Counted from the stretch's first letter, positions 22,494 through 44,347 are shown. The stretch is DNA of 44,347 nt from Candidatus Omnitrophota bacterium (GCA_018824725.1 JAHJGB010000077.1:1-44347), one strand, 5' to 3'. Numbers and translations are program-made. Notes: generated from the sequence alone by a model not told the origin.

Positions 22494-22495
22494 AA

Positions 22496-23908: not shown

Positions 23909-23944
23909 TACTTTTCTTTTACAAAAATTAGTGCTAGTAAAAAG

Positions 23945-24916: not shown

Positions 24917-24955
24917 GGGTATATATTTTAAGTATAAGTATTTAAGAAAGTTTAG

Positions 24956-27569: not shown

Positions 27570-29036
27570 ATGATTAATATGGGTGGATGCGCAGAATCAA
27601 ATCCGGAAATCATTAAAGACCTGATTAAGCGAGTTGCGTTTATTTATCTTTCATTAGCTCCTAGCGCAGTTGGAAGGAGAGCGATAAAAGAAAAGTTCAT
27701 CCTTAGGCGCAGGTTAGGACTTGAATATCTATGTGCGACGCTTAAAAATAAAAATATTGAAACCAAGATATACGATCAAGTATTGTTGGATTTTAGCTTA
27801 GAAAAATTAGTTAGTTTCTTAAAAAGGGACAAAATCGATTTAGTTGGTTTTTATATAATTTCAAAAAATCTTAACATCGTCAAATGCTATATTAAAGAAA
27901 TTAAAAAAAAGGTCAATATTCCAGTTATCTCTGGCGGACCCGGATGCAATCATTATAATGAACTTATTGATGCCGGATGTGAGATTGTATGCTTAGGCGA
28001 AGGAGATGAAACAATCGTTGAAATAGTAGATTATTATGAAGGGAGAGAGAGTTTAAGAGAGATAAAAGGTATTGCTTATTTCGATACAGAAACTAAAAAA
28101 ATTTTGACGACACTCGCAAGGCCTCTAATAAGTAATTTAGATAATTTACCTTTTCCTCATAGAGATCCAAAGATGATTCAAAAATATTGCGATTATTTTG
28201 CTTATCCACTCAAGAGGCCTTATATAACTATTATAACTTCGAGAGGTTGCCCGCATAATTGTTCTTTTTGTACCTCACATTCCTTTTGGAAAAGAAAATA
28301 TCGTCAACGCTCTGTAGAGAATGTGATTCAAGAGATTAAACAAGCAGTTCATGAATTAAATATTAAATCTATATATTTTGTTGATGATATTTTTGCTTTA
28401 GATTTTAATTGGCTGACAGAATTCTGCCAGGCAGTTAAGAAAGAAAAATTCAATTTTACCTGGATGTGCAACTTGCATCCAATGACTTTTAGAAAAACAA
28501 GAGAAAAAGCCTTTTCGCTCATGAAAGAATCAGGTTGTAGTATCATTTCTTTTGGAGCACAATCGGCTGATGCGGAGATATTGAAAAGAGTTAATAGAGA
28601 TCCTGGTGAGCCGGGAGAACTGAGAAAGGCAATCTGTCAGGCTAACTCTACGGGGATAACTACCGCTGTTACTTATATTTTCGGTTTACCAGGCGAAACA
28701 GTCAAGACCTTGCAAAAAAATATCGATTTTTGTCTTGAGGCGAAACCCCACATTGTGGATTTCCACCTTTTAGAGATTATACCTTTTTCTGATTTGAGCA
28801 TCCACTATAGCCAAGGAAGGGTCTGTGAATTAGGCGAGGATCAACTCGCCTATTATAATATGAAATATATGATGAGTTATTATTTGAGGCCCAAAATAGC
28901 CTTCCAATTGTTACGCGATATTTTAAATAAGAATCCGGCCAGAATCTTGACTTTTAGCCGTTTGGGGTTCCATTTCTTGAAAATTCTTTTGGCTTCTCCC
29001 GGATCCTTATTATCGGGACAATCTAAACAACGATGA
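27570..29036 (+). CDS. B12-binding-domain-type radical SAM protein, paralogue 6
   Basis: CLGEGDETIVEIV, IKGIAYF, TSRGCPHNCSFC, GLPGET and YYLRPKI motifs. Confidence 0.85.
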   Translation: MINMGGCAESNPEIIKDLIKRVAFIYLSLAPSAVGRRAIKEKFILRRRLGLEYLCATLKNKNIETKIYDQVLLDFSLEKLVSFLKRDKIDLVGFYIISKNLNIVKCYIKEIKKKVNIPVISGGPGCNHYNELIDAGCEIVCLGEGDETIVEIVDYYEGRESLREIKGIAYFDTETKKILTTLARPLISNLDNLPFPHRDPKMIQKYCDYFAYPLKRPYITIITSRGCPHNCSFCTSHSFWKRKYRQRSVENVIQEIKQAVHELNIKSIYFVDDIFALDFNWLTEFCQAVKKEKFNFTWMCNLHPMTFRKTREKAFSLMKESGCSIISFGAQSADAEILKRVNRDPGEPGELRKAICQANSTGITTAVTYIFGLPGETVKTLQKNIDFCLEAKPHIVDFHLLEIIPFSDLSIHYSQGRVCELGEDQLAYYNMKYMMSYYLRPKIAFQLLRDILNKNPARILTFSRLGFHFLKILLASPGSLLSGQSKQR

Positions 29037-31339
29037 ACCGTCTCTTCGATTCTATACGGATTAAATATCTACCGCTGTTGACCCTGGTATCATTTTACGT
29101 AGCCATAATGCTGCTTATCATATTTGCCGGTGGCGATAACTTTAAGCTGGTTGATGAGCTGATTGCTGGGACTATAGCCAAGATGTTGATTGATGGCATA
29201 GGTCTGGGGACTATTTTTCATTGCCTTTGGAATAGTCATGGGGGCCTGATCGTTGGCAGCATTATAACCGTTCCCTTTTTTCTTTTATTCGGGCAAAGCC
29301 TGATTGTGCTCAGATCAGTAGCAATATTTTTTTCTTCGGGCACGCTGATTCTTTTGTATCTATTCCTCTATAAGTTTTTCAATAGAAGAGCTGCGGTCTT
29401 GGCGAGCCTGCTCTTCATACTGGCTCCTCCCAATTATAGTAAGATGTCATTTACTCTTGTCGGTGGATATGCCGACACAAATTTATTTTCGATCCTGGCA
29501 TTTTTTATATTCTACAAGATTTTTTGGGGAGGAGGCGAAAGCCGGCGGTCTGCATATGCCCTTTTCGGACTTGTGTGCGGTTTCTCCCTTTTTTACGATT
29601 ACGGCTTTCTATTGACCTTATCGTGCTGTTTGCTATTTTGGTTTGTTTTTGATAAGGGTATCCTGGCAAGAAAAAGTTTTTATATATTCCTGGCATTTTT
29701 CCTTGTTGGTTTTAGCCCCGGGTTTTATTATAACGCAACCCATAATTGGAATTCCATTTTTGTCCTGCGCAAAGAACATTCCCTATTGTCCTTGTTTACA
29801 AAAAATAGTCTTTTTGATTCGTTAAACCAACTCAAGAATCTCATTGTTTTTGATATCCCGCATTATTTCGGTTTCAACGGCTTCTTTTCCATAAACAAAG
29901 ATGTTATTTCATATTTATATTATTCTATACCTGTTGTTTCTTTTATCGGGCTTTTCTGGTTGCAGAGGAGATCGATCGCAAGATTTTTATCTGGATTAAT
30001 CCCCTTGCGGCGTTTTAACATCCTGCCCGCAGCGATCCAACCTGAGACCCCCCTTATGATATATCTGATGATATTCGGGCTTGCCTTTGCATTCTGTGGT
30101 ATTGCGCAGTTCGCTGAAGATGATAGTATAGGCTTTCCCGAGAGATTGGTGGCATATATCATGCCGCATATTTTCATAGTCGTTTCCATCTTTTTGACTA
30201 AGATGATTCGGCATAGGCATGGCGCATGGATATCAAAAATGCTCGTTTCTGTGTTGATTGCCATCGGTTTGGTAGGTACCTTAGGCATGATCTCTGCACA
30301 GGATTATGCCATAAGCGCTCTGCCTGAGGGATATACGTACTTTATCTCAGGGAGATTATTCAGTAACTATAACGATGACATTAGAAAACCTTTAGATGTG
30401 ATCAAAACAATCGATGCAAAACATCGACCCTTATTTTACGACGGCTACAAGTGGGGATTTTCAAAAATCGGAAAAGATTTCTCGTTCGGAGGCTACGCGC
30501 AGAAAACGATAGCGGGAAGTATCGATAAGGAATACTGGCCTCTTGCCTATGAATATTTAGGCAGGGTGATGGGCCGCGGGCCCTGGCGGTATACCAAGGG
30601 CAGCGATGAGGAGTTTAAGGCCTGTGTGCAGGAAGAATTCCACCCCTATTTTTACCGGGGCCTGGGCAGGGCTTGCGTCGATAAGGAGTTTAGCGTACGT
30701 AGGTACATCCATATCCTGGGGATAATCGACAAACGATATTGGCGCTCTTTCCATGAAGGTATGGGTGTAGAAATGGATATCATGCTCATCGAGCACACGA
30801 AAGGATTTACCCGGTTTATCTCCGCCATAGACCCAGAGGCCAGGCAGGATATCTACCGAGGGTTCGCATATGGCAGGGGATACCCCGAAATTAGTTACCG
30901 CAAATTTCAGCCTGGTTTCGGCAAGATACTCCCCTCAAACAAAGAATGGGGAAAGCGCATAAGCACTGTCGAGGAAGAATTCAGGCCCTATTGTTACCAG
31001 AGATTGGGTATTGAGGTTGGTTGGAGGCTCATCTACGGCATCAGAGAAAACCTGCGCTTTTTACAGGAAGTCGATGAGAAATACAAGCCATATGTGTATA
31101 GGGGATTAGGCATAGGTATCGGGTGGAGGTTTGGGCATAACATAAACAGCTGTATAGTGTTAATAAAAAAAACAGAGCAACGGTGCTGGCCCTGGATATA
31201 TGAAGGCTTAGGAACAGGGATAGCTAAGAGATACGGTTGCCGGATGGATGAGCAAACTCGAGATAAAGAAGCTGATAAGATCCCTCCGGGATTCAGGCGC
31301 CAGTTCCACAATGGTTTAAAGGAGGTCCCCGGAATATGA
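29033..31339 (+). CDS. GT-C-like polytopic membrane protein with a C-terminal 34-residue repeat array (paralogue A)
   Basis: 768 aa. The start ATGA overlaps the upstream stop. First-loop motif is VDELIAGTIAKMLI, with about 11-13 TM spans. About 9 repeats of type [IV]D.E[YF].P..Y.GLG...GWRF lie at 30410-31320. Confidence 0.7.
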   Translation: MNRLFDSIRIKYLPLLTLVSFYVAIMLLIIFAGGDNFKLVDELIAGTIAKMLIDGIGLGTIFHCLWNSHGGLIVGSIITVPFFLLFGQSLIVLRSVAIFFSSGTLILLYLFLYKFFNRRAAVLASLLFILAPPNYSKMSFTLVGGYADTNLFSILAFFIFYKIFWGGGESRRSAYALFGLVCGFSLFYDYGFLLTLSCCLLFWFVFDKGILARKSFYIFLAFFLVGFSPGFYYNATHNWNSIFVLRKEHSLLSLFTKNSLFDSLNQLKNLIVFDIPHYFGFNGFFSINKDVISYLYYSIPVVSFIGLFWLQRRSIARFLSGLIPLRRFNILPAAIQPETPLMIYLMIFGLAFAFCGIAQFAEDDSIGFPERLVAYIMPHIFIVVSIFLTKMIRHRHGAWISKMLVSVLIAIGLVGTLGMISAQDYAISALPEGYTYFISGRLFSNYNDDIRKPLDVIKTIDAKHRPLFYDGYKWGFSKIGKDFSFGGYAQKTIAGSIDKEYWPLAYEYLGRVMGRGPWRYTKGSDEEFKACVQEEFHPYFYRGLGRACVDKEFSVRRYIHILGIIDKRYWRSFHEGMGVEMDIMLIEHTKGFTRFISAIDPEARQDIYRGFAYGRGYPEISYRKFQPGFGKILPSNKEWGKRISTVEEEFRPYCYQRLGIEVGWRLIYGIRENLRFLQEVDEKYKPYVYRGLGIGIGWRFGHNINSCIVLIKKTEQRCWPWIYEGLGTGIAKRYGCRMDEQTRDKEADKIPPGFRRQFHNGLKEVPGI

Positions 31340-32355
31340 GACTCTCCGGAAAAATAACCGCAATAAACGCATTACTCAAGGCCAGGGTATTCAACAAAAA
31401 GACTCCGCTTTTAGTAACCTGGGAGATAACGAGGCGGTGTAATGTCAGATGTAAATACTGCAGCATATGGGATGACGCGCCAGAAGAGTTAGATACCACT
31501 CAGATTTTTTCAATAATCCGGGAACTGAGCCTTCTGGGAACGCAAGTGATTCATTTCACCGGGGGCGAGCCTTTGTTGAGAAGCGACTTTGGCCAAATAT
31601 TGGAGTATTGTTATAAAAAAGGCATACTAACTTCGCTGAATTCAAACGGCACCCTTGTCTCTTCGCGCATAGATGAGCTTATGACCTTACAGGTATTGGG
31701 GGTAAGTATTGACGGTCCCGAAGAGGTGCACGATAAAGTCCGCGGGGCTGGTTCGTATAAAAAAGCTATGGAAGCGCTTGCCATTGCCCGGGATAGGGGC
31801 ATACAGATCAGGCTACTGACTGTTCTTTCAAAGTATAATTTAGATGCCGTTGATTTTCTTTTGGATAGGGCGATGGAGCTTGACGCGTCCGTCGTTTTTC
31901 AGCCTGCTACGGAACTTTTGTTAGGCGGGGAGGGCCGGAACCTGACAGCGCCGGAGGTCGAAAGATACCATCGTGTAATCGAGCAGATTATCGTTAAAAA
32001 AAGAGGGAGGCAGGCGCGGTATATAGCAAATTCAGTGTCGGCTCTAAAATTTTTATATGATTGGCCGGATATGAAAATGATCCGTTGTTTGGCGTCGCTT
32101 ATTTCATGCCGGATTGAAAGCGACGGCCGCGTGTGTATATGTTTTCGGAACCAGGTTCGGGGGGCGACGATAGGCGATGGCCGCCAGAGCGTTAAAGACG
32201 CTTTTATGAAGATTCCCTTGGTTTACTGTAATAAATGTTGCTGCGCCTCCGCCGTCGAATTAAACTGCCTGCTTTCTTTGAAATTTGACGCCATTTTTAA
32301 TACATGGCGGTATTTGCTGTATCGCTGGCTTTTTCGGGACGGAGAAGGGCAATGA
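31336..32355 (+). CDS. Radical SAM protein with C-terminal Cys-rich (SPASM/twitch-like) extension
   Basis: WEITRRCNVRCKYCS motif, then FTGGEPLL. The C-terminal Cys cluster reads CLASLISCRIESDGRVCICF...CNKCCC. The start overlaps the upstream stop (ATGA). Confidence 0.8.
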   Translation: MRLSGKITAINALLKARVFNKKTPLLVTWEITRRCNVRCKYCSIWDDAPEELDTTQIFSIIRELSLLGTQVIHFTGGEPLLRSDFGQILEYCYKKGILTSLNSNGTLVSSRIDELMTLQVLGVSIDGPEEVHDKVRGAGSYKKAMEALAIARDRGIQIRLLTVLSKYNLDAVDFLLDRAMELDASVVFQPATELLLGGEGRNLTAPEVERYHRVIEQIIVKKRGRQARYIANSVSALKFLYDWPDMKMIRCLASLISCRIESDGRVCICFRNQVRGATIGDGRQSVKDAFMKIPLVYCNKCCCASAVELNCLLSLKFDAIFNTWRYLLYRWLFRDGEGQ

Positions 32356-32358
32356 GAT

Positions 32359-34239
32359 ATGATTAAGAATAAATACTTCATTTTAATGGTTTTGTCTATA
32401 GTATTTGTTTGCGTGCGATTGCCTGCCATCATTACTTCAACGGATAAGATATTTGATTTTAATGAGTTGTATATCGGCACCATTGCTAAGGAATTGATTG
32501 AGAGCCCCTCGCTGCCGCTCTTTGATTATCAGTTAACGCATATAAAGGGAGGAACGTTGCTTGCGGGGATTTTTGTCATCCCTTTCTTTTGGCTATTTGG
32601 CCAGTCATATTTTGTTTTGAAGCTTGCTGCGCTCCTTGTTTCATTAATAATCCTTGCGGTGACCTACCTTTTTCTTTGGAGATTCTTCAATAAAAAGATT
32701 GCTATAATCACCGGAGCGCTTATGGCAATATCGGCGCCGATATACACTATATTCTCATTAATGCTTTATGGGAAAGAGTATGAGTCTATTCTTTTTACTA
32801 TGATAGCGTTATTTCTTTTCTATAGGATATTTTTTCAAGAAGCGTCGGCTCGCGAGGCCTCTCATAAAGAACTCTACTTTGCACTTTTTGGTTTGGTCAG
32901 CGGGTTAGGCATGTACTTTGATTATATTTTCGCGGCAACCCTGATTTACTGCCTGGGATTCTGGTTTATTTTTGATAAGGCTTTTTTTGCGCGAAGAGGC
33001 TTCCGGTTCTTTCTCATATTCTTTTTCGTGGGTTTAAGCCCCTGGATTTATTATAATCTCACGCACAATTTTGCTGCTATCTGTATTGATGACAATTATC
33101 ACGGCATACCCCTGAGACACCTATTTCTTTTAAACTCTTTACCTGAAGTAGCGTGTAAGCTGAAGGATCTTTTGTTATATTATCTGCCCAATTCTTTTTA
33201 TTTTATGGATTTTAAATCTATTCCCGGTGACGCTATATCGTATACCTACTATGCTATTTTTCTTCTTTCTTTTTGTATTCTTTTTTGGTTGAATAGAAAG
33301 ATCATATGGAAATTACTCTACGGGCTCATTCCATTAAGAAGAATGCGCCTTGCGCCAAGCTCAATTTATCGCGAGGCTTTCATATTGCTATACCCTATTA
33401 TTTTCTCATTCCTCTTTGCCTTTTCGTATTATACGCTTAGCAAGAAGGATGAATATAATTTTTTCGGTTTCAACGAATATAGGTTTCTGATTATGTTGTA
33501 CCCCTTTGTTTTTATTATCCTTGCCATTTTCTTAAGTAGATTATGGGATTGGAGTAAGAGGGGCAGAAGAATCGCTGCCTACCTCTCTGTGTGCATATCG
33601 CTCTTTCTTGTGGCGAGCGGGTTAAGCGCCGATTATAACCTTATAACTTTTCGCAACTTTCGCAATCGTTGTGTCCATGCGGGATATAATTATTTCTTCT
33701 TGGGTATGGCCTTCGGAGAAAAATATGGTAATTTTATTCCGGCAGCTGTGAGTCATGCGGAAAATATTCGCCAACCGTATAGAACCTCTGTCTTTCGTGG
33801 CATCGGATTTAATATCGGCTGGCGGTTCTTCCGCGGAAAAGAATATAGAGATATCGATATCTGCATGGCCCAGATAAACAAGGTCGATCCCGCATATCGT
33901 CCTTTTGCCCTCGAGGGCTTCGGGGCATTTTTGGAGATGCAATTAAAGGGCATCACCCGCGCTGCCTCTTATGTAAACAATATGGATAAGCAATATAGGC
34001 CGGATCTATACCGGGGGATAGGTTGGTTTATGGGGTTTAGGTTTAAGGATAGATTCTTTATGGCCACTGAGCCCATATACAAGATAGATGAAGAATACAG
34101 GCCTGACTATTGCAGGGGATTGGGAGAAATAGCCGGGGTAATATTTGGGCAAAATGAGAGCTGCTACACTGAGTTACTGAGAAACGCTGATCCGAAGTAT
34201 CGCCCGTATGTTTTAGAAGGTTTAACAAACAAACTGTGA
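32359..34239 (+). CDS. GT-C-like polytopic membrane protein with a C-terminal 34-residue repeat array (paralogue B)
   Basis: 626 aa. First-loop motif is FNELYIGTIAKELI. The TM core is colinear with 29033 and 40291 (FDKAFFARRGF...YYNLTHNF, IPLRRMRLAP). About 5 repeats lie at 33765-34236. Confidence 0.7.
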   Translation: MIKNKYFILMVLSIVFVCVRLPAIITSTDKIFDFNELYIGTIAKELIESPSLPLFDYQLTHIKGGTLLAGIFVIPFFWLFGQSYFVLKLAALLVSLIILAVTYLFLWRFFNKKIAIITGALMAISAPIYTIFSLMLYGKEYESILFTMIALFLFYRIFFQEASAREASHKELYFALFGLVSGLGMYFDYIFAATLIYCLGFWFIFDKAFFARRGFRFFLIFFFVGLSPWIYYNLTHNFAAICIDDNYHGIPLRHLFLLNSLPEVACKLKDLLLYYLPNSFYFMDFKSIPGDAISYTYYAIFLLSFCILFWLNRKIIWKLLYGLIPLRRMRLAPSSIYREAFILLYPIIFSFLFAFSYYTLSKKDEYNFFGFNEYRFLIMLYPFVFIILAIFLSRLWDWSKRGRRIAAYLSVCISLFLVASGLSADYNLITFRNFRNRCVHAGYNYFFLGMAFGEKYGNFIPAAVSHAENIRQPYRTSVFRGIGFNIGWRFFRGKEYRDIDICMAQINKVDPAYRPFALEGFGAFLEMQLKGITRAASYVNNMDKQYRPDLYRGIGWFMGFRFKDRFFMATEPIYKIDEEYRPDYCRGLGEIAGVIFGQNESCYTELLRNADPKYRPYVLEGLTNKL

Positions 34240-36575
34240 TTAAGGTTATGTCCACGCTGAGGTTTAAAGAAAAATTCGCTTTGATAATTTTTGGTCTCGT
34301 TATCTGTGTGGTTTTACTTGAGTTAGGATTGCGATTTGGGGGATGGGTATTTTTATCTTTCCAAGAACACAGAAATAAAGTTGTCTCTAAGGAGAAAGGT
34401 GCGTATCGCATCCTCTGCTTAGGTGAGTCTACTACCGCCTGGACTATAGAACTAGACGAAGGAGAAACCTCGTATCCCAGCCAGCTTCAAGAAATCCTCA
34501 ATCAAAGCGATTTAGAAAAAAAATTCATTGTAATCAATGCAGGAGTTTCTGGAATTACCACTACGGGGATTGTAAGACAATTATCAGATAATTTAAGTAA
34601 ATATAGCCCGGATATAGTAATTACGATGATGGGGATAAATGACTCAAATATTCTTCCTTATGAGAACGCATCTCTTCCTCGAATATTGTCTTTTTTGAAG
34701 GAATATAGAGTCTATAAACTTGTAAGCCTTCTGTGGTTGCATAGTGTCAATAAATTTAATGAACTACGAGAGGAAGATTGCTTTTCAATAGGCACGGCGC
34801 TGTCAACAAGGTTTAAGAAAGAAGAAGCGAGGCTAAAGCAGGCTATCGAGATGAACCCCAGCGATAATAAGGTTTATCTTGAATTAGGCAGTTATTATCT
34901 GGATTCAGCAAGATTCCGGGAAACAGAAAAAATGTTTAAAAAAGCTATCATGGCTGACGCCGGAGATGATACGGCCTATTTTGAATTAGGAAAGTGTTAT
35001 GCAGAGACAGCAAGATTTAAGGAAGCAGAAGAACTATTCCAAAAGGCCCTTGCAATAAACCCTCAAAACCATGAGGCCTATCTCGAATTAACCCTGTATT
35101 ATATAAGTGAGGGGCGACTTCAAGATATAGAAGAGATGATTAAAAAGGTTATCGAAAGAGCTCCCGGAGATGGCAATGCTTATGCTCTATTAGGCTGGTA
35201 TTATATGCATATAGGAAGAAACCAAAAGGCAGAGGATATACTTAAGAGAGCTATTGAACTAAATCCAGAAAATTACCATGCACTCCTTGCCCTGAAGTCG
35301 CATTACTTAGATACAGGAAGATTCCGGGAAGCAGAAGAAACACAGGATAGATTGGACGCCATAAAGCCGAAAACCTATGAGACATATGTTAAATTGGGCT
35401 ATTGTTATCTCCAAACAGGAAGATCTCAGAAGGGAGAAGAGCTGCTTCTAAGAGCTATTGCAATAGACCCTCAAAACTATAAGCTCTATCACTATTTAGG
35501 GTACTGCTGTTACAATCCCCTAAGAAGATATCGAGAGGCAGAGAATATATTGAAAAGAGCTATCGCAATAAACCCCGAAAGTAGTGAAGCGTATTTAGGA
35601 TTGGGCCAGTTTTATATCAACCAAGGAAAATATCCAGAAGCTAGAAAGCTTATTAAAAAGGCCCTTAAGGCGAGTCCAAAAAGTTACAAAGCATACGTGG
35701 CATTTGAGTCGTATGATGTGAGTCCGAGGAGCCTTAAAACATACACTACATTTGGAGCGTATTATTACAAAGCAGGAAGATTCCGGGAAGCAGAAAGAAT
35801 ATTTCACAAGATTCTCGAAATAAACCCAAGAAATTACGAAATATACCTTCAGCTTAGCAGATGTTACAGGGCTGCAGGCGAATTGCGCAAGGCAGAAGAG
35901 GTGTTTACAAAGGCAATAGAAATAAATCCGAGAGAGTCAAGGGCATATTTTAGATTAGGGTGTTTGTATCAGATGGAGGCAAGATATGAAGAGGCGGAAC
36001 AGACATGGATAAAGGGTTTAAAAATAAATCCAGAAAATTATGACATATGTTCTAAATTAGCTCAACTTTATACAAAGGAGAAAAGATTTCAAGACGCGGA
36101 AAAAATCTTTCAAAGAATTTTTGAGATAAATCCACAAAATCGCGCAATATATCTTGAACTCGGAGATTATTTCAAGCCTATTACAAAATCTCAAGAGGCA
36201 GAAGAAGCGCTTAAAGAAGAATCACCATTGGCTATAAGAAGATATATACAGCGCACAAATAGATTAGCTGCCTATAAAAAAGCCACAATTGATAACTACC
36301 AAAAACTTAGGGAAATCTTGCGAGAAAGGGGGATAAAGCTGATAGTAGTACAGTATCCCTGTCGCAGTATAAAGCCATTAAAGAATATTTTTGAGAATAA
36401 AGAAGGTATCATTTTCGTAGATAATGAAAATACGTTTAGAGAGGCATTAAAGCAGGGTAATTATAACGAATATTTTAATGACCGTTTTGCCGGTGACTTC
36501 GGCCATTGCACTCGCAGAGGCAATCGATTATTGGCCGAAACAATAGCAAATGCCATAATTCAGGCTGGGTATTAG
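34236..36575 (+). CDS. Membrane-anchored SGNH/GDSL hydrolase interrupted by a long TPR array
   Basis: N-terminal TM span. SGNH block I is LCLGESTT (Ser65), block II is NAGVSG, block III is MGINDS. About 12 canonical TPRs follow (roughly 34820-36190), then block V is GDFGH (D754..H757). The start is GTG 34236 or ATG 34248. Confidence 0.7.
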   Translation: MIKVMSTLRFKEKFALIIFGLVICVVLLELGLRFGGWVFLSFQEHRNKVVSKEKGAYRILCLGESTTAWTIELDEGETSYPSQLQEILNQSDLEKKFIVINAGVSGITTTGIVRQLSDNLSKYSPDIVITMMGINDSNILPYENASLPRILSFLKEYRVYKLVSLLWLHSVNKFNELREEDCFSIGTALSTRFKKEEARLKQAIEMNPSDNKVYLELGSYYLDSARFRETEKMFKKAIMADAGDDTAYFELGKCYAETARFKEAEELFQKALAINPQNHEAYLELTLYYISEGRLQDIEEMIKKVIERAPGDGNAYALLGWYYMHIGRNQKAEDILKRAIELNPENYHALLALKSHYLDTGRFREAEETQDRLDAIKPKTYETYVKLGYCYLQTGRSQKGEELLLRAIAIDPQNYKLYHYLGYCCYNPLRRYREAENILKRAIAINPESSEAYLGLGQFYINQGKYPEARKLIKKALKASPKSYKAYVAFESYDVSPRSLKTYTTFGAYYYKAGRFREAERIFHKILEINPRNYEIYLQLSRCYRAAGELRKAEEVFTKAIEINPRESRAYFRLGCLYQMEARYEEAEQTWIKGLKINPENYDICSKLAQLYTKEKRFQDAEKIFQRIFEINPQNRAIYLELGDYFKPITKSQEAEEALKEESPLAIRRYIQRTNRLAAYKKATIDNYQKLREILRERGIKLIVVQYPCRSIKPLKNIFENKEGIIFVDNENTFREALKQGNYNEYFNDRFAGDFGHCTRRGNRLLAETIANAIIQAGY

Positions 36576-36685
36576 GGGATGTGAAAAATTTGTTGATAAT
36601 ATATTGGCAGTGATTAGAATAACTACAGGCGGCTAAAGTGATTATATCAAGAGTGAAAAAGGAGTGAATACGAAGGAACAATAAT

Positions 36686-38080
36686 ATGAGATTAGCATTT
36701 GTATATCCTCCTCAGGAAGTATGCAGAATTTTTTACCCGGAGAAGATTCGTAGGCAGTATAACCGGGAAGGGGCGATATTGCCTCCTCTGGGCATTGCTT
36801 ATTTGGCGGCAATCCTGGAAAAAAAACACGTTGTCAAGATTATCGAAGCGAACGCCCTCCGCCTGAGCCTCGATGAAGTCATTGACCAGTTGAGGGATTT
36901 TAAGCCGGATGCGCTCCTGTTCAGTTTGATAACGACCGATTTCCGGCCTAATTTAGAGTGGATAAAGGCAATAAAAAAACAAATTGATGTCCCTGTTATA
37001 GTAGGAGGGCCGCAGCCGTCTATTTATCCAACCGAGACATTGACGTATGATGAGATTGATTTTTGCGTGGTGGGAGAAGGCTGGGAAACCTTGCCCGAGC
37101 TCTTGGATTGCGTAGCCGGCAAGGGCGATTATAAAAGCGTTAAAGGGATAGCGCTTAAAGAAAACGGAGAAATTGTGCTTACAGAGAAAAGGCAGGCAAA
37201 ACTGAATATTAATAACGTCCCTTTCCCTGCCCGGCATTTATTGCCGAATGAAAGCTATACTACGATTCTTTCAAAACGGCGGCCGATCACGGCTATCATG
37301 TCGAGCTCGGGATGTCCCTTTAACTGCCTGTATTGCGGGCATAGCTATGACGTTATCCTGCGGGATCCCGTGAGGGTGGTCGATGAAATGGAAGAGTGCG
37401 CGAAGAAATACGGCATAAAGGAAATTCTTTTTTACGATGAGACATTTTCACTGGATAAACACAGGGCGGCGATGATATGCGAGGAGCTCATCAAAAGGAA
37501 GCTCGATATCGCCTGTACAATAAGGACCCGGGCTGACTTAGTTGATGAATTGCTTGTAAAGCTATTTGCCAGGGCAGGCTGTATCAGGATTAGTTTCGGC
37601 ATTGAAAGCGCGGATCCTGAGGCGTTAAAATGGCTGAGAAGGAACTTGTCATTGCCGCAGATTGTCGATGCGGTCCGCTGGGCAAAGCGGGAAAAAATAG
37701 ACACCCTGGGGTTCTTTATGATTGGGTATCCGGGAGAAAGCGCGCAGGGGATCCAGAAAACAATCGCGCTGGCTAAACAGTTAGATCTCGATTACGTGCA
37801 AATTAACAAACTGGTTACGTTACCCGATACGCAGTTATATACGATGTTCAAAGAAAAGACCGGAAAAGACCTCTGGCGAGATTATGTGCTGGGAAAAGCG
37901 GATTTTGCGAGTTTCGCTCCCCTTAATTCAAAGTTGACCGTAGAGGAACTTGACATGTGGCTAAAAAAGGCTTATCGAAGCTTTTATTTCAGGCCACGCT
38001 ATATTCTTAACCGGCTTCGCAATGTAACGTCTTTTAAGGAATTTTGCGGTTTGGTCAATTCCGCTTTATCTTTACGGTGA
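36686..38080 (+). CDS. B12-binding-domain-type radical SAM protein, paralogue 7
   Basis: LPPLGIAYLAAILE, VVGEGWETLPEL, SSSGCPFNCLYC, GYPGES and FYFRPRYI motifs. Confidence 0.85.
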   Translation: MRLAFVYPPQEVCRIFYPEKIRRQYNREGAILPPLGIAYLAAILEKKHVVKIIEANALRLSLDEVIDQLRDFKPDALLFSLITTDFRPNLEWIKAIKKQIDVPVIVGGPQPSIYPTETLTYDEIDFCVVGEGWETLPELLDCVAGKGDYKSVKGIALKENGEIVLTEKRQAKLNINNVPFPARHLLPNESYTTILSKRRPITAIMSSSGCPFNCLYCGHSYDVILRDPVRVVDEMEECAKKYGIKEILFYDETFSLDKHRAAMICEELIKRKLDIACTIRTRADLVDELLVKLFARAGCIRISFGIESADPEALKWLRRNLSLPQIVDAVRWAKREKIDTLGFFMIGYPGESAQGIQKTIALAKQLDLDYVQINKLVTLPDTQLYTMFKEKTGKDLWRDYVLGKADFASFAPLNSKLTVEELDMWLKKAYRSFYFRPRYILNRLRNVTSFKEFCGLVNSALSLR

Positions 38081-38121
38081 TTTTCGAGGAAAGAACGAAA
38101 CTCTTAACGGTATAAAACGAT

Positions 38122-38877
38122 ATGGCTATTTCTCTTGTAATGCCGGTCTATAATGAAGAGGGTGTAATAGAAAAAGTAGTACGGGACTGTTACGCGGAAA
38201 TTATCGCTAAAATAGAAGGTTCCGAGTTTATTATTGTCAATGATGCCAGCACGGACTCTACTCCCGAGATCCTTGAAAGGCTCGCAAAAGAATTTCCCCA
38301 AATAAAACTTCTGCGCCTAGATAAGAACAATGGGCATGGGAACGCTCTTCGCGCGGGGTTCGCGAAAGTGAGAAACCCGGTTATTTTACATATGGACAGC
38401 GACGCTCAATTCCAGGCAGGGCAGTTCTGGAAATTGTATCAAAGACTGGCAGATAGCGATATAGTTTTGGGGCTGCGCGCTTCCAGGCACGACCCGTTGC
38501 ATCGCAAGGCCATTTCATTCATAGTGCGGCTCATAAATATGGCCCTGTTCGGCTTCTTAGTGAAAGATATCAATTCTCCGTTCAAATGCATCAAGACAGG
38601 AATTTTGCAGGATATTTTAAACGATATACCTCCGAACGCTTTTGCCATTTCAATCCTCATGGTGATCATGGCCAAACATAAGGGATATCGAGTCGCCGAA
38701 GTTCCCATAATTCATTTTCCCAGGACAACCGGCAGGAGTAAGCTTGCAAGCGCGCGTTATTTATTCAAAAAATGCCTTTTTTGTTTGCTTGATATTCTGC
38801 GGGTTAAATGGAATTTATTGACTAAAAACCGCAATAGCACGGTAGGGCGCAATGAAAATTATATTAATAATCCCTAA
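38122..38877 (+). CDS. GT2 glycosyltransferase, polyprenyl-phosphate sugar synthase type (Dpm1/ArnC/GtrB-like)
   Basis: ISLVMPVYNEEGVIEKVV...FIIVNDASTDSTPEIL...NNGHGNALRAGF...MDSDAQF. It is about 250 aa with a short hydrophobic C-terminal part, the typical layout of this subgroup. Confidence 0.7.
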   Translation: MAISLVMPVYNEEGVIEKVVRDCYAEIIAKIEGSEFIIVNDASTDSTPEILERLAKEFPQIKLLRLDKNNGHGNALRAGFAKVRNPVILHMDSDAQFQAGQFWKLYQRLADSDIVLGLRASRHDPLHRKAISFIVRLINMALFGFLVKDINSPFKCIKTGILQDILNDIPPNAFAISILMVIMAKHKGYRVAEVPIIHFPRTTGRSKLASARYLFKKCLFCLLDILRVKWNLLTKNRNSTVGRNENYINNP

Positions 38878-40249
38878 CTCGGGGAAAATACCCCCTTTAA
38901 TACCGCTTGGCACTCTCTATATCGCTTCTGCTTTAAAGAAGGCGGGGGACCATCAAATAAAGATCATCGATGCGAGGGTGGGAAGGTTAAATTACAAGGA
39001 AATTTCCGGCAGTATTAAAAGCTTTTCTCCGGAACTCGTAGGCATAACCGGATTATGTATTGAGGCCCCAGAGGTTCATAAGCTTGTTCGTCTAGTAAAA
39101 CAAATAGACGCACAATACAAAGTTGTAGTTGGAGGGGCTTATGCTACCTTCTGTCGAGAGTCTATTATCGAAGATCCCAACATAGACTTCGTAGTGATAG
39201 GAGAAGGAGAAAAGGCGATATGTAATCTCGTGGATGCCCTAGAGAATGGTAAGAATATTTCCGGCATCGACGGCATTGGTTTTAAGAATGGCAGTAAAAC
39301 AACCATTAACCTCCCTGTCGCGCTTACAGAGGATATAGATTCCATACCTCTGCCTGCGTGGGGCCTCATCGACATGGAAAAATATTTCCATGGCCCGCAT
39401 AAACATTCACAAAATCCAGCTTCTGTATTCAATAGGATAGCCCCGCTCTTTACTTCCCGCGGCTGTCCATTCGGATGCATTTTTTGCCACAACATTTTTG
39501 GTAAGAAAGTAAGAGCCAGGAGCGTCCGGAATGTTGTTGAAGAGATCGAAGTTTTGATTAAGGAATATGCCGTCGAGGAGATCGAAATTATCGATGACAT
39601 TTTTAATTTTGACCTGGCTCGAGCTAAACAAATATGCGATGAGATAATCAAGCGCGGGATTAAGATCCACCTTTCTTTTCCGAACGCCCTCAGGGCTGAT
39701 ATGATGGATGAGGAGCTTATTGTTAAATTAAAGAAGGCAGGGACATATTTGATTTATTACGCCATTGATTCCGCTTCGCCGGAAGTGCAAAAGCAGATTA
39801 ACAAAAACCTCGATTTGGAAAAATCAAAAGAAGTAATTAATATGACAATCCGGCATGGGATAGCTACGGGCGGTTATTTTATGCTAGGTTTCCCGGGAGA
39901 AACCAGAGAACAGATGCGCCAGACGATCAGGTTCGCGCTGAAATCAAAGTTACACTTCGCAAGTTTCTTCTACGTAGCCTCTTTTCCGCACACAGCATTA
40001 TCTAAAAGATTAGGCAGGGATACGATAGACCAGGAAAGTTTCAACCACTCCGATGTCCTTAAGCTTACCAGGAATTTTTCTTCGGTGCCGGACTCCGAAT
40101 TTAGAAAATTGGTGTCCAGGGCGTATGGGAAATTTTATTTTCGTCCTTATCAGATGTGGCGTATATGGAAAGTGCTGCCCAACAAAATTATGGTTTTAAG
40201 GAATCTATGTATGGTTTTAGGACGTTATATCAAGGATAGATTTCATTAA
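38852..40249 (+). CDS. B12-binding-domain-type radical SAM protein, paralogue 8
   Basis: PPLIPLGTLYIASALKK, VIGEGEKAICNLV, TSRGCPFGCIFC, GFPGET and FYFRPYQM motifs. It overlaps the GT2 3' end by 26 nt. Confidence 0.85.
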   Translation: MKIILIIPNSGKIPPLIPLGTLYIASALKKAGDHQIKIIDARVGRLNYKEISGSIKSFSPELVGITGLCIEAPEVHKLVRLVKQIDAQYKVVVGGAYATFCRESIIEDPNIDFVVIGEGEKAICNLVDALENGKNISGIDGIGFKNGSKTTINLPVALTEDIDSIPLPAWGLIDMEKYFHGPHKHSQNPASVFNRIAPLFTSRGCPFGCIFCHNIFGKKVRARSVRNVVEEIEVLIKEYAVEEIEIIDDIFNFDLARAKQICDEIIKRGIKIHLSFPNALRADMMDEELIVKLKKAGTYLIYYAIDSASPEVQKQINKNLDLEKSKEVINMTIRHGIATGGYFMLGFPGETREQMRQTIRFALKSKLHFASFFYVASFPHTALSKRLGRDTIDQESFNHSDVLKLTRNFSSVPDSEFRKLVSRAYGKFYFRPYQMWRIWKVLPNKIMVLRNLCMVLGRYIKDRFH

Positions 40250-40290
40250 TATCTATTAGCGGGGCATGAATTTCAGGCTTACGGTGATCC

Positions 40291-42642
40291 ATGACAGGGC
40301 ATAAACTTATCAGAAGCAGATATATTTGTTTGGTAGCTTTGACGCTAATATATTTATTGGTTCGATTAACGGTCTTATTCTGTTCCATAGATAAGGTACA
40401 TTTAGATGAAGAATTATATCGCGGTAATATTACTAAGGAATTGATTTCTGGGCCGGCTTTTCCATTTTTTGATTACCAAAGGAGTGAGTACGAAGGCGGT
40501 TCATTGCTAAACGGTATTTTGGCGTTGCCGTTTTTTTTGCTTTTTGGAGAGACGTTGATATCTCTCAAATTGGTAGGGTTATTGATAGGAACAAGCCTAT
40601 TCATTTTATGGTATTTATTTTTAGACAGGTTTTTCAGTAGAAGGGTAGCAATTTGGACAAGTTTACTGTTTATTCTAATGCCGCCTTTCTGGATTAAGAT
40701 CAGCATTTCTAGTTACGGCGGGCAAGACCAAATCGGCCTCTTTACCATGCTGGCGATATTGATTTTTTACCAGATATTTTTTGTAAGAAGTACAAAGGCC
40801 CTTTTTGGGTTCTTAGGAGTAGCCTGCGGTTTTGGCCTGTTCTTCCATTGCAGTTTTTTGCCGACATTATTAACTGTTATTTTATTCTGGTTTATTTTCG
40901 ATAAGAAATTCTTCCTCAGGAGCGAATTCTTTATTTTTACCATCGCTTTCTTAGTCGGTTTTGCTCCATGGATCTGGTATAATCTTACCCACAATTTTCA
41001 AGGATTGATCGTAAACGATGAACTTCTGTCTTACTGGTTTTCGCGCAATAACCCTCTTCATTTCTTTTTGAGGATCAAGGATTTTGTTACAATTGAAATC
41101 GCAAATGCTTTTAGTTTTGAAGATACTATTTTGAGATTCGAGCCTCGCGCGTTACTCGGCAATTGGTTTTTTTCCCGTATTTATTATTTTGTATTTGTGT
41201 TTTCCTTTTGCGCGCTATCGTGGCTCAACCGCCGGTCTTTGGTAAAACTCATACGAGGCATTATCCCTCTCCGAGGTTTCACGGTATCGCCTCAAGACAT
41301 ATCCAAAGAGGTATTCTTGCTTATGTTTTTTGTGATATTTGATCTCATCTTAAGCCTGTCCGGTATTAAACATAATGTAAATAATTATGAGAGTAGCGTG
41401 TGGCGTTACAGACAAGTCATGCCTGTCGGTCTTTTTGTTCCTGCGGTGATAGCCATATTCTTATACGGAAAGGGCATACAATTCAGGCGTTTTTTTATTC
41501 CCTATTTTAATTTCTGTATTATGGCGCTTTTGCTGGGATTGGGGCTGGTCTCCAGCTTTAATTTCATTTCTAAGGATTGCCTGCGCAAGGCCGCCTTATC
41601 TGGGATATACCGTGGTTACAACTATTATAATTTAGGGAGGGTGATTGCGTGGAGGTTTGACGGTTCTCCGCGATGGATCGACTCCATAAAAAGAATTAAA
41701 GACGGGGAGGCCAGGCGATATTGCTATTCCGGCATGGGCTGGGGATACGCTGAAGATAAATTTGATGCTGATTATCATTATTACCTAAGTACGGTAATAC
41801 ATAAGATCGAGAGGGATTACTGGCCGTATGCCTATGAGTGGATGGGGGAAGCATTAGAAAGGGAGCTCAAGTATGATAAATCAACAACCGCCGAATTAAA
41901 AAATTTGCTTGACCCTGAATTCATTCCTAATTTCTATACCGGTGTGGGCCGCCAGGCAGTCGCAGAGGTTTTCGGTGATCCGGAGCAGACGGTTTTGGAT
42001 TTCAGGAAAAGAATCGACAAGGAATACGAGCCTTTTTTTTATCATGGCATTGGAGTCGAGCTATTTGACGCCTTAGTTAATCAGCCGAAAAAATTCTTTA
42101 GTTTTATGAGCGCAATTGACAAAAGATTTGAACCTCAGATATATACAGGATTGGCCCAGGGAAAAGAATATTATCGGTTTCTGTATCGTGATTTTGGGTT
42201 CGGTATCGGGAAGAAGGTTGGTTATGATATCGGAAAGTGGAAATGGATTATGAGTAAGATAGGAAAAGAGTACAGGCCTTTCTGCTACGAGCGGCTGGGT
42301 ATCGAGGCAGGATGGAGGTTTATCCACGGCATAAAAAAATACAGTTCATTTTTAAGGGCGGCTGACCAGGAATATTGGCCGTATCTCTACAGGGGTTTAG
42401 GAACCGGTATTGGGTGGAGGTTTGCCTATAACATCGAGGGATGCGTAGCATTGATAAAATATGCTGATCAGGCATTTTGGCCCTATATATACGAAGGCCT
42501 GGGAGTAGGCGTGGCCAGGAGATATGCCTATCAGAAAGATGCATGGGCAAAAGGTGCCAGGTATATACCCGGGGATTACCGGCCTTATTTTGACGCAGGT
42601 ATAAAAAATGATTTTGACCGCAGGTATGGAGGACACGATTAG
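40291..42642 (+). CDS. GT-C-like polytopic membrane protein with a C-terminal 34-residue repeat array (paralogue C)
   Basis: 783 aa. First-loop motif is LDEELYRGNITKELI (40405-40446). The TM core is colinear with 29033 and 32359. About 10 repeats lie at 41607-42620, and the last three are spaced exactly 34 aa apart. Confidence 0.7.
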   Translation: MTGHKLIRSRYICLVALTLIYLLVRLTVLFCSIDKVHLDEELYRGNITKELISGPAFPFFDYQRSEYEGGSLLNGILALPFFLLFGETLISLKLVGLLIGTSLFILWYLFLDRFFSRRVAIWTSLLFILMPPFWIKISISSYGGQDQIGLFTMLAILIFYQIFFVRSTKALFGFLGVACGFGLFFHCSFLPTLLTVILFWFIFDKKFFLRSEFFIFTIAFLVGFAPWIWYNLTHNFQGLIVNDELLSYWFSRNNPLHFFLRIKDFVTIEIANAFSFEDTILRFEPRALLGNWFFSRIYYFVFVFSFCALSWLNRRSLVKLIRGIIPLRGFTVSPQDISKEVFLLMFFVIFDLILSLSGIKHNVNNYESSVWRYRQVMPVGLFVPAVIAIFLYGKGIQFRRFFIPYFNFCIMALLLGLGLVSSFNFISKDCLRKAALSGIYRGYNYYNLGRVIAWRFDGSPRWIDSIKRIKDGEARRYCYSGMGWGYAEDKFDADYHYYLSTVIHKIERDYWPYAYEWMGEALERELKYDKSTTAELKNLLDPEFIPNFYTGVGRQAVAEVFGDPEQTVLDFRKRIDKEYEPFFYHGIGVELFDALVNQPKKFFSFMSAIDKRFEPQIYTGLAQGKEYYRFLYRDFGFGIGKKVGYDIGKWKWIMSKIGKEYRPFCYERLGIEAGWRFIHGIKKYSSFLRAADQEYWPYLYRGLGTGIGWRFAYNIEGCVALIKYADQAFWPYIYEGLGVGVARRYAYQKDAWAKGARYIPGDYRPYFDAGIKNDFDRRYGGHD

Positions 42643-43752
42643 ATGCGGATAGCAGTTGTTGGCGCAGGATTATCGGGCTGTACAATCGCGCGGCTCCTTA
42701 AAGACAGGGGGCACGATATTACCATTTTTGAGAAAGAGAAAAGGATAGGCGGTCTTTGTGCGACCGCCACCCATAGAGGCCGGCCTTATCAATTATTTGG
42801 CCCTCATAATTTTCATACCCACAACGAGTCTGTTATTAAGTTTCTCTGCAGATTTAGCGCATTCAATAATTATGTCCATCGCGTGGGAACGTTTGTCGAT
42901 GGCAAGGTTTTACCATATCCGATTAGCTATAAGACGATAGACATACTAGAGGAAAGAGACTATATATTAAAAGAACTTGCGCATCTTCCTAAGAAGGTTA
43001 ATATGGCAAACTTCGAAAGCTGTGTTGTCTCGATGGTCGGAAAGACCTTATATAAAAAATTTATCGAAAACTATACTCTGAAGTTTTGGAGAATATCTCC
43101 GAAGAAGATGGGAGCAGAATGGGCGCCCGAGAAGATAGAGATCAGGCGCGATGACAGTTTGGGATATTTCGGGGACGAATGGCAGGGCCTGCCGACACAG
43201 GGCTATACGCATATGTTCGAAAAAATTATAGAGGGTATACCGATTCATTACGATGTAGAAATAAAGGATTATCGGGACCTGAGGCATGATTTGGTCATAT
43301 CTACCATTCCGATAGACGAGCTGTTCAGCTTTTGCTATGGCCGATTGGCTTATAGAGGGCTCGATTTTGTCATACATTTCAAAGAAACAGAATGGGAAGA
43401 CGTCAAATACGGCTGCATAAATTTTCCTGAAAGAGATGTTGCTTATACGAGAAAGAGCAATTACAGCTTGTGCTATTACAATGGCCCGCTGAGTTCCTAT
43501 ATTGTTGGCTATGAATTTCCCGGCAATGCAAGCAGGATGTATCCTATTTATACTTCTCAAAATAAAAAACTTTTCAATAAATATCTAACGCATTTGATAA
43601 TGGTAAAAAATCTTATAAGTGTTGGAAGATTGGGACTTTTTCGCTATTACGATATGGACAAAACAGTAGAATGGTGCCTCGATAATATCGATATGGTGGA
43701 AAATTACCCGTCTTTAACCCCCGCGGAGAGGATACAATGGCTGTCTCTGTGA
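42643..43752 (+). CDS. glf: UDP-galactopyranose mutase
   Basis: N-terminal FAD fold IAVVGAGLSGCTIARLL..ITIFEKEKRIGG. It is colinear with Glf through FGPHNFHT, YTLKFW, WQGLPTQGYT, LAYRGLDF, VAYTRKSNY, MYPIYTSQN and VGRLGLFRYYDMD. ggagga lies before the ATG. Confidence 0.85.
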   Translation: MRIAVVGAGLSGCTIARLLKDRGHDITIFEKEKRIGGLCATATHRGRPYQLFGPHNFHTHNESVIKFLCRFSAFNNYVHRVGTFVDGKVLPYPISYKTIDILEERDYILKELAHLPKKVNMANFESCVVSMVGKTLYKKFIENYTLKFWRISPKKMGAEWAPEKIEIRRDDSLGYFGDEWQGLPTQGYTHMFEKIIEGIPIHYDVEIKDYRDLRHDLVISTIPIDELFSFCYGRLAYRGLDFVIHFKETEWEDVKYGCINFPERDVAYTRKSNYSLCYYNGPLSSYIVGYEFPGNASRMYPIYTSQNKKLFNKYLTHLIMVKNLISVGRLGLFRYYDMDKTVEWCLDNIDMVENYPSLTPAERIQWLSL

Positions 43753-44347
43753 CCATTAAGGCCATACGGCACCATTTCAGAAATTCTGTTGCCGTTGCGC
43801 TCATTACAATATCGGCGATTTTGTTTTATTTGCCGCTTTTTAGAGATCTAAGTCATGGCATTCCCTGCGTGGATTGGTGCGGGATATATCCTTATATTGA
43901 CTTTTTTAGAATATCCATTATCAAATATCATCAGTTTCCCTTACGAATCCCTCATTTTTGCGGAGGTTACCCCTCTATAGGTTTTCCCTATGACATATCC
44001 TTAAGCCCCTTAATGCTGATTGTCCTGGCGTTTGGAGCCATAGAAGGGACTAAGATCACCATCTTTTTAATGGCTTTATGCGGCGCCTTAAGCGTATTTT
44101 ATTTAACCCGCTACCAGCTTCGCTATAATCTGGCGGGCTCCCTTTTTTCTACGCTGGCTTTTCTTTTCTGCAGCTGGGGGCCTTGTCAATACCTGGAATC
44201 AAACTATGAGAAGTTATACTTTTATTTCCTGCCTTTGCTGGTAGTTCTTCTTATAAAATCCACACAAAATAAAAAGTTTATATTTTTTGCATCTGTGGCC
44301 TTAGGTATCGTAGTCGTATCTGCCGGCAGCATTTTTATACCCATTGC
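43737..44347 (+). CDS. Polytopic membrane protein, 5' partial (runs off the window)
   Basis: ATG 43737 overlaps the glf stop. I translated an open frame by hand to the window end (MAVSVTIKAIRHHFRNSVAVALITISAILFYLP...) with several hydrophobic spans. It is not in the supplied ORF track, presumably because it has no stop. Confidence 0.6.
   Translation, partial: MAVSVTIKAIRHHFRNSVAVALITISAILFYLPLFRDLSHGIPCVDWCGIYPYIDFFRISIIKYHQFPLRIPHFCGGYPSIGFPYDISLSPLMLIVLAFGAIEGTKITIFLMALCGALSVFYLTRYQLRYNLAGSLFSTLAFLFCSWGPCQYLESNYEKLYFYFLPLLVVLLIKSTQNKKFIFFASVALGIVVVSAGSIFIPI

Follow-up and report, generated by a model that had tools for sequence, protein, structure and literature searches.

Three times within 15 kb of a Candidatus Omnitrophota genome, a gene for a radical S-adenosylmethionine (rSAM) enzyme directly precedes one for a large membrane protein with a repetitive C-terminal tail. 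Does this arrangement represent a two-gene module present in three copies, or does it follow from the composition of the cluster that surrounds it? The DNA analysed is a stretch of 44,347 nucleotides (GCA_018824725.1, JAHJGB010000077.1:1-44347; hereafter the window), and the genes in question lie between positions 27,570 and 42,642. A sequence-only reading of this region had proposed the former, with each membrane protein being a GT-C glycosyltransferase that works with its own rSAM partner. We found that the membrane proteins, here called A, B and C, are old paralogues with a predicted GT-C core, and that their pairing with particular rSAM genes is not conserved in related loci. We therefore consider it probable that these genes belong to the 3′ half of an extensive, conserved island for envelope glycan or glycoconjugate biosynthesis, of a kind typical of Omnitrophota, and are not a set of three two-gene modules.

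The coordinates of all six genes were reproduced in our map of open reading frames (ORFs), and the gene layout given by the sequence-only reading was correct. Other genes are referred to below by the position of their first nucleotide. All six are on the plus strand: a B12-binding rSAM of 488 amino acids (aa; 27570-29036) precedes A (768 aa; 29033-31339), a small rSAM of 339 aa with a Cys-rich C-terminus (31336-32355) precedes B (626 aa; 32359-34239), and a second B12-binding rSAM of 465 aa (38852-40249) precedes C (783 aa; 40291-42642). When the junctions were read directly in the sequence, ATGA stop/start overlaps were present at 29033 and at 31336, and spacers of 3 nt and 41 nt lay ahead of 32359 and 40291, respectively. 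A, B and C are 37-38% identical in pairwise comparisons (A versus C, 37%) and colinear, and a hidden Markov model (HMM) of the repeat recognised copies in all three tails, in line with the description of these proteins as colinear paralogues.

The rSAM genes upstream of them do not show a comparable relationship. The 27570 and 38852 proteins share 26% identity (120 bits), the lowest value among all B12-rSAM pairs in the window, and 31336 belongs to a different rSAM class from both. Because the partners do not form homologous units, whereas the GT-C proteins are 37-38% identical, sequence comparison indicates that the pairs in the window are not derived from duplication of a two-gene unit. The frequency of the arrangement was also unremarkable. 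The six genes are part of one plus-strand cluster that extends from 11783 past the 3′ end of the window, and 10 of the 20 genes in its 11783-43752 part encode rSAM enzymes according to Pfam (eight B12-type, one small rSAM and one GT2-rSAM-SPASM fusion). When the order of these genes was shuffled, all three GT-C genes were preceded by an rSAM gene with p = 0.105; if the unrelated membrane protein 19326 was counted as a fourth, the value was p = 0.043. The short junctions say nothing specific about rSAM/GT-C pairs, because genes elsewhere in the operon also abut closely or overlap (-4 nt between B and the TPR-GDSL gene, 0 between C and GLF, and -26 nt between the small GT2 gene and 38852). With half of the operon genes in one superfamily, repeated adjacency is expected by chance, and only orthology-aware synteny tells real pairs apart.

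Homologues were found almost exclusively in Omnitrophota-type metagenome-assembled genomes (MAGs). A scan of GTDB genomes yielded 12 loci and a metagenome scan yielded 17, many of which were short. ORFs were called and classified, and the synteny statistics refer to about 10 long loci sharing ancestry. In a neighbour-joining tree, the GT-C proteins formed three orthogroups, A, B and C. Because L001, L035 and the P0008 locus each carry all three types together, the triplication is older than the split between these genomes, which have kept it since.

We then compared the neighbours of each orthogroup. Orthologues of C were present at 42-74% identity in 9 loci, and the gene immediately upstream of the C-type gene encodes an rSAM in 10/10 loci. 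This rSAM is of the small type in seven of them, MiaB-like in L001 and L018, and B12-binding in this window only; its class thus switches between C orthologues that are 74% identical, being MiaB-like in L001 and B12-type in the window. On the other side of the C-type gene, GLF is located within two genes in 9/10 loci. A-type genes have an rSAM gene upstream in 2/8 loci, the others having a GT2, TPR-GDSL, FrhB or unknown gene at this place, and an rSAM gene lies directly downstream in 8/8. B-type genes are preceded by an rSAM gene in 4/9 loci, never of the 31336 type, and have a TPR-GDSL gene within two genes in 8/10.

The same conclusion was reached from the rSAM side. In all loci for which DNA was available, orthologues of 31336 (51-62% identity) fall between the A-type and the C-type gene, directly after the A-type gene in L001, L018 and L035 and directly before the C-type gene in L004, L035, L036 and L039; across the compared loci, none precedes a B-type gene, as 31336 does in the window. 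Orthologues of 38852 (50-67% identity) directly follow a small GT2 gene in 8/8 loci (L001, L004, L006, L035, L037, L039 and the P0008 locus among them), often with an overlap of 4-26 nt. The conserved partner of 38852 is this GT2, not C. For 27570, there is no orthologue in the GT-C loci compared; its orthologues (66% and 55% identity) occur in L042, where they do not adjoin a tail-family GT-C gene. In addition, orthologues of 36686 (36686-38080, plus strand; a B12-binding rSAM of 464 aa in the window by Pfam; 56-82% identity) are found directly downstream of C-type genes in L001, L002, L004 and L037. The sequence-only reading had not counted 36686 as a partner.

None of the pairs in the window thus recurs orthologously, and neither the threefold module nor the assignment of each GT-C protein to its own rSAM was borne out. 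The adjacencies in the window arise from the density of rSAM genes in the cluster and from local rearrangement. A link between the two enzyme types did stand at the level of the pathway: rSAM-rich clusters accompany the GT-C genes in every long Omnitrophota-type locus, and the island recurs in the related loci examined with three to four GT-C enzymes and five to ten rSAMs per cluster. The same rSAM context was expected at a homologue from Altiarchaeota and was not observed. Because this homologue has no B12-rSAMs nearby, the rSAM association is specific to Omnitrophota-type clusters.

The commonest order elsewhere, as in the P0008 locus and L035, is B, TPR-SGNH, A, small rSAM, C, GLF, GT2 and B12-rSAM. 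In the window, the small rSAM and C are separated by a block consisting of B, TPR-SGNH, B12-rSAM, GT2 and B12-rSAM. B and C are closest to their L001 counterparts (82% and 74% identity, respectively), and A is 42% identical to the L001 A-type protein and 51-53% identical to the A-types of L002 and L037. A short plus-strand ORF at 25228-25476, in the gap at 24560-25447, ends with ...ERPHKCLGYKTPDKDF, which resembles the C-terminus of an IS30-family transposase. If it is such a remnant, its position just upstream of the GT2-rSAM fusion gene 25448 suggests that the cluster was rearranged at that point. A history of local rearrangement fits both this IS30-like remnant and the discordant affinity of A, and the 25.4-31.3 kb segment may have a different history, by replacement or transfer within the phylum.

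The assignment of A, B and C to the GT-C fold was examined by sequence and by structure. In Pfam, all three fall below the gathering threshold of PMT_2 (18.5, 23.1 and 20.1 bits for A, B and C, respectively, against a cut-off of 26.1). An NCBIfam scan of the three proteins returned no match, and the family profile had no meaningful match among PDB sequences. Several homologues carry a precomputed PF13231 match, and NCBI names them 'GT39 family' or 'ArnT family'. Because there was no match to a PDB sequence, the fold assignment rests on Foldseek. An AlphaFold2 model of full-length C, built with 47 homologues, had a pLDDT of 86.5 and a pTM of 0.87. Every Foldseek match of this model at probability 1.00 was a GT-C enzyme (Pmt4, ArnT, ALG12, ALG9, AglB, PglB, STT3 and EmbC), with E values of only about 1e-2. 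Because the solenoid tail diluted the match, the core was modelled again alone (residues 1-440; pLDDT 87.7, pTM 0.90). The core matched ArnT (5f15; E 2.9e-4, query TM-score (TMq) 0.54-0.55), Pmt4 (TMq 0.57) and AglB (E 3.8e-4), and its matches to ArnT, AglB, Pmt4, ALG12, STT3, PglB and Emb all had a probability of 1.00, with TMq values of 0.44-0.57. Major facilitator superfamily and other transporters reached TM-scores of only 0.13-0.15, and no O-antigen ligase was among the 50 matches listed; the possibility that the core is not GT-C-like, which would have refuted the sequence-only reading, was thus not borne out. These model-based comparisons indicate that A, B and C are ArnT/PMT-like GT-C glycosyltransferases.

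The motifs that had been quoted for the family all exist, although three of the four had been written slightly incorrectly. The first-loop motif reads EELY.G in C, where (D/N)E had been given, two others are F.FDK....R..F, in which the spacing after FDK had been off by one, and [YW]YN.THN[FW], and IPLR(R/G)(F/M).(I/L/V).P is exact as quoted. In alignments of 47 and 58 sequences, conservation of the first-loop Glu E41 and of E50 (numbered as in C) reaches at least 90%. An acidic DE motif in this loop had been invoked as the catalytic hallmark of GT-C enzymes; the conserved glutamate supports this proposal, but the strict dipeptide does not, since the preceding position varies between D, N and E (NE in B, EE in C). 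From its conservation, the first-loop Glu is a putative catalytic acidic residue of the GT-C type. The public gene call of C (P0001) is 712 aa long and starts 71 codons downstream of the ATG at 40291. Alignment with the homologues begins at residue ~5, from which we judge the longer form to be correct; it includes the first transmembrane (TM) helix and the conserved first-loop motif.

The TM core spans residues ~1-430 in A and 1-423 in C and is followed by the repeat tail. According to the HMM built from the tails, the repeat is a helical unit of 34 residues with the approximate consensus "ID.EYRPy.YrGLG..iGWRF". A contains ~7-8 copies (residues ~495-735; nt ~30515-31240), B has a short tail of ~4.5 copies (residues 467-622), and C contains 8-9 copies (residues 473-752; nt ~41707-42546). 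In the model of C, the tail matched alpha-solenoid proteins such as karyopherins, PPR proteins and CAND1 in Foldseek. The tail has no Pfam family, and no Pfam TPR family matched it at E ≤ 10. Compared with the TPR protein of the cluster itself, it gave an hhalign probability of 0.1, and the two have in common only the 34-residue period and the alpha-solenoid fold. The B tail reached 13.7 of the 25 bits required for DUF1702 (E 0.03), and this family was matched by 3 of the 45 distant tail carriers scanned (best E 1.8e-4); a remote relationship is possible from these sequence scores. At E ≤ 1e-3, a HMMER scan of 1.84 billion representative proteins retrieved 59 clusters with the tail, in almost all of which it is C-terminal in a protein of 550-800 aa. 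Among the 45 distant carriers, 17 matched PMT_2 at E ≤ 0.01 (best E 8.6e-12) and one matched Alg9-like GT22. We conclude that the tail is an accessory domain of GT-C enzymes only, and a rare one.

To place the tail relative to the membrane, we applied the positive-inside rule to the last three TM helices of the C model. Loops 313-338 (5 K/R) and 393-401 (3 K/R) come out as cytoplasmic by this count, which probably leaves the tail in the periplasm, the side on which ArnT, PglB and Emb carry theirs. The speculation that an rSAM partner acts on the repeat domain itself is unlikely for this reason, since a periplasmic tail would be out of reach of cytoplasmic Fe-S enzymes.

The L040 locus has, at 10001-21923, five or more GT-C paralogues that belong to the tail family or are related to it, including a run of four consecutive genes (15489, 17229, 18967 and 20661); the GT-C tail family has expanded independently in other lineages. 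In both L038 (9846-10004; 52 aa) and L040 (9820-10014; 64 aa), a B-like GT-C gene is overlapped by a short ORF directly ahead of it, which may encode a small peptide or result from a mis-called start.

Turning to the rSAM enzymes, 27570, 36686 and 38852 each match both PF02310 (B12-binding) and PF04055 (Radical_SAM), which confirms the B12 type that had been assigned to 27570 and 38852. The best NCBIfam scores of the B12-rSAMs were 132-201 bits against cut-offs of 360-750, so that equivalence to BchE, HpnJ, PhpK, GenK-like and other named enzymes is not supported. AprD4 was among the PDB matches of 38852 (E 2e-13). The 31336 protein had been described as SPASM-type. It is an rSAM by Pfam, but it has no SPASM (PF13186) match at E ≤ 0.01. 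Because its C-terminus is Cys-rich and its best PDB matches are SkfB and PqqE, an auxiliary-cluster (SPASM/twitch-like) domain is plausible but unproven. The small GT2 (251 aa; 38122-38877, plus strand; Pfam Glycos_transf_2), which shares its last 26 nt with 38852 and is conserved in related loci, resembles polyprenyl-phosphate sugar synthases, with PDB matches to ArnC (E 1.2e-17), DPMS (4e-15) and GtrB (1.6e-7). The fusion of GT2 and rSAM found in 25448 (PF00535 with PF04055, 600-709 aa) is shared by at least 13 protein clusters, which come from several phyla, some of them from MAGs labelled as Elusimicrobiota and Nanoarchaeota. L035 and the P0008 locus have a distant split form, with GT2 (348 aa), rSAM (363 aa) and PMT_2 protein (534-542 aa) in this order. 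Two other functional pairings are better supported than those first proposed: GT2 with rSAM, through conserved overlap and fusion, and the 31336-type rSAM located between A- and C-type genes.

A pathway can be proposed for the island by analogy with the Arn, Gtr and GT136 three-component systems. Small ArnC/DPMS-like GT2 enzymes would load sugars onto polyprenyl phosphate at the cytoplasmic face, the sugars including galactofuranose (from the adjacent UDP-galactopyranose mutase) and an amino sugar (from the DegT enzyme). Cytoplasmic rSAMs would tailor the nucleotide- or lipid-linked sugars, for example by C-methylation, oxidation/epimerisation or deoxygenation. After flipping of the lipid-linked sugar, each GT-C paralogue would transfer its own distinct donor to an envelope acceptor in the periplasm, the solenoid tail would bind or recognise the acceptor, and the membrane-anchored TPR-SGNH protein would further modify the product. 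The GT-C enzymes would take a polyprenyl-phosphate-linked donor on the extracytoplasmic face, for which the ArnC/DPMS-like GT2 in the cluster provides context only. The product would probably be an unusual, heavily tailored envelope glycan. In a more specific version, which we consider possible but less likely than not, the rSAMs act at the membrane on the polyprenyl-phosphate sugars of the GT2s to which they are fused or overlapped, and the resulting radical-tailored (e.g. C-methylated) donors are installed on the envelope by the three solenoid-bearing GT-C enzymes.

Several observations weigh against the island as we interpret it. No flippase of the GtrA, ArnE/F-EamA or MATE type was recognised among the Pfam-scanned ORFs of the window, where the membrane proteins 19326 and 43737 have no family assignment, nor did the gaps at 14.5-15.3 kb and 24.6-25.4 kb show an obvious small membrane ORF; L004 has an EamA gene. 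Substrate, product and acceptor are predictions. The topology is deduced from charge counts on a predicted structure, and counting from the N-terminus gives either 11 or 13 TM helices. Because each rSAM is far under every NCBIfam equivalog cut-off, the chemistry assigned to these enzymes is a guess. The loci have common ancestry, and the adjacency counts are therefore not independent events. Finally, the constant presence of an rSAM gene immediately upstream of the C-type gene leaves room for a closer rSAM/GT-C tie, at least of the 31336 type with A and C.

This last point bears on the proposal that each GT-C enzyme has a dedicated, translationally coupled rSAM acting on its donor, its acceptor or its tail, in three parallel modules. 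The direct precedence of an rSAM gene at all three GT-C genes (four with 19326) and the ATGA overlaps at two junctions would be explained by it, and it keeps a little weight because A- and C-type genes are always flanked by some rSAM gene. However, the partners are of more than one rSAM class, and the B12-type ones are the least similar such pair in the window; the permutation values are p = 0.105 with three genes and 0.043 with four; the orthologues of 27570, 31336 and 38852 are located elsewhere in related loci; the class upstream of C changes between close orthologues; and the tail is probably periplasmic. The synteny data have already largely refuted this proposal, and we regard it as very improbable.

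Two further explanations place the rSAM chemistry on other substrates than sugars. The rSAMs may modify a secreted protein or peptide, in the manner of ribosomally synthesised and post-translationally modified peptides (RiPPs), which the GT-C enzymes then O-glycosylate in the periplasm while their tails bind the acceptor. SkfB and PqqE, the best PDB matches of 31336, are peptide-modifying enzymes, the B12-rSAMs weakly match RiPP C-methyltransferase models, the nearest architectural analogue of the GT-C proteins, TMTC1-4, glycosylates proteins (PMC7801869), and short ORFs are located ahead of the B-like genes in L038 and L040. Nevertheless, neither the window nor the loci compared with it showed a conserved precursor-peptide gene, genes for sugar-nucleotide and glycan enzymes abound in the cluster (GLF, DegT, several GT2s and SGNH, with Poly_export in L038 and L040), and the rSAMs are fused to or overlapped with GT2 genes, so that we consider a protein or peptide substrate unlikely. 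Alternatively, the substrate of the rSAMs may be a membrane lipid or the polyprenyl carrier itself, with remodelling of the kind carried out by HpnJ, HpnR, Tes and the ladderane-type B12-rSAMs, and the GT-C enzymes would then glycosylate that lipid. The top weak NCBIfam matches do include HpnJ, HpnR, 'lipid biosynthesis B12-binding/radical SAM' and Tes, but their scores are far below the cut-offs (e.g. 145-238 bits versus 578 for HpnJ), and no isoprenoid, squalene or fatty-acid genes were detected in the cluster by the Pfam scan. Lipid remodelling therefore appears quite improbable.

The remaining genes of the cluster are all on the plus strand. Between B and 36686, a gene at 34236-36575 encodes a membrane-anchored GDSL/SGNH and TPR protein (Pfam Lipase_GDSL_2 and many TPR families) and overlaps the end of B in a GTGA. 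The UDP-galactopyranose mutase gene (42643-43752; Pfam GLF, E 5.6e-38) starts right after the C stop codon. It is followed at 43737-44345 by the 5′ part of a gene for a conserved membrane protein of 613-663 aa (phmmer E 8e-107 to L035_17011-18957), the relatives of which come after B12-rSAMs in related loci; the cluster extends beyond the end of the window. Upstream of 27570, a gene at 25448-27550 encodes a 700-aa protein in which a GT2 domain, several TM segments and a radical SAM-SPASM domain are fused (Pfam Glycos_transf_2, Radical_SAM and SPASM).

The upstream half of the same cluster (11783-24559) contains, according to Pfam, five B12-rSAM genes (11783, 16136, 17921, 21222 and 22496), a DegT aminotransferase gene (13257) and two SAM methyltransferase genes (15263 and 23945). 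It is syntenic with L042 (ena:ERZ27247960:k141_2661543), in which 9 of 15 genes encode rSAMs and orthologues of 15263 (64%), 16136 (77%) and 17921 (62%) occur together with those of 27570. L042 also has two PMT_2-type proteins without a tail, and its rSAM/methyltransferase block seems to be a separable module. The B12-rSAM gene at 21222-22493 has a TTG start and a 198-nt gap upstream, and its B12-binding match starts at profile position 37; its N-terminus may be truncated or its start mis-assigned. A polytopic membrane protein of 565 aa is encoded at 19326-21023, with a 23-nt overlap with the preceding B12-rSAM gene 17921. We considered it as a fourth member of the GT-C family and rejected it, as the hhalign probability was 0.2 and neither a Pfam or NCBIfam match nor a repeat copy was detected. 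Its sole weak similarity is to a PMT_2 protein of L035 (E 7.6e-5).

Omnitrophota are uncultivated and often ultra-small, and their surface chemistry is essentially unknown. Our literature searches on Omnitrophota with rSAM and glycosyltransferases, on rSAM with undecaprenyl phosphate and GT-C, and on DUF1702 found nothing that describes this cluster. The GT-C fold and the general logic of extracytoplasmic glycosylation by GT2 and GT-C enzymes are already known. As far as we found, the tail domain, the conserved set of three paralogues and the density of rSAM genes, including GT2-rSAM fusions, are undescribed. The recurrent overlap and fusion of GT2 and rSAM genes is a more interesting lead than the three-module claim, as it leads to the testable hypothesis that radical chemistry takes place on lipid-linked sugars, for which we know of no characterised precedent and found none in the literature. 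If true, this would be an undescribed rSAM-dependent branch of extracytoplasmic glycosylation.

Among known systems, the ArnT/PMT group of GT-C enzymes (Pfam PMT_2; CAZy GT83 and GT39) is the closest in its core, with TMq values of 0.54-0.57 to ArnT and Pmt4, a conserved acidic residue in the first loop and a soluble C-terminal domain after the last TM helix. As in the Arn system, an ArnC-like GT2 and a DegT (ArnB-like) aminotransferase are encoded in the same cluster. In contrast to ArnT and PMT, the window proteins are below the PMT_2 threshold, have no PDB sequence match and do not keep the strict DE, and their tail is a 34-residue alpha-solenoid without a Pfam family rather than the periplasmic domain of ArnT or the MIR domain of PMTs. 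The eukaryotic O-mannosyltransferases TMTC1-4 combine a PMT-clan core with C-terminal TPRs (PMC7801869). As in A, B and C, a solenoid with a period of 34 residues, on the lumenal or extracytoplasmic side, comes after a GT-C/PMT-like TM core, although the window proteins are bacterial and their tail has no detectable TPR sequence similarity.

The GT136 system consists of a GT2, a flippase and a GT-C enzyme, with auxiliary enzymes that act on the lipid-linked donor and a C-terminal carbohydrate-binding module on the GT-C that binds the acceptor (Kelly et al. 2024, PMC11127046). Together with TMTC1-4, this module is the closest analogue of the tail in architecture. Like GtrABC, ArnC-ArnEF-ArnT and GT136, the window encodes a GT2 resembling polyprenyl-phosphate sugar synthases together with GT-C enzymes, and a furanose-forming enzyme (GLF) beside a GT-C. 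It differs from them in that no flippase was recognised in the window and in its gene numbers, as a cluster has three or four GT-C paralogues and can have as many as ten rSAM genes. To our knowledge, no described system of these types has rSAM enzymes. Sugar-tailoring rSAMs are familiar from antibiotic pathways, in which the C-methyltransferases GenK and GenD1, the diol dehydratase AprD4, BtrN and DesII act on soluble aminoglycoside or nucleotide-sugar substrates. The rSAMs of the island resemble these as B12-binding or twitch/SPASM enzymes encoded in a carbohydrate pathway. Orthology is not claimed; unlike them, the rSAMs described here are overlapped or fused with membrane GT2 genes, within an envelope glycan cluster.

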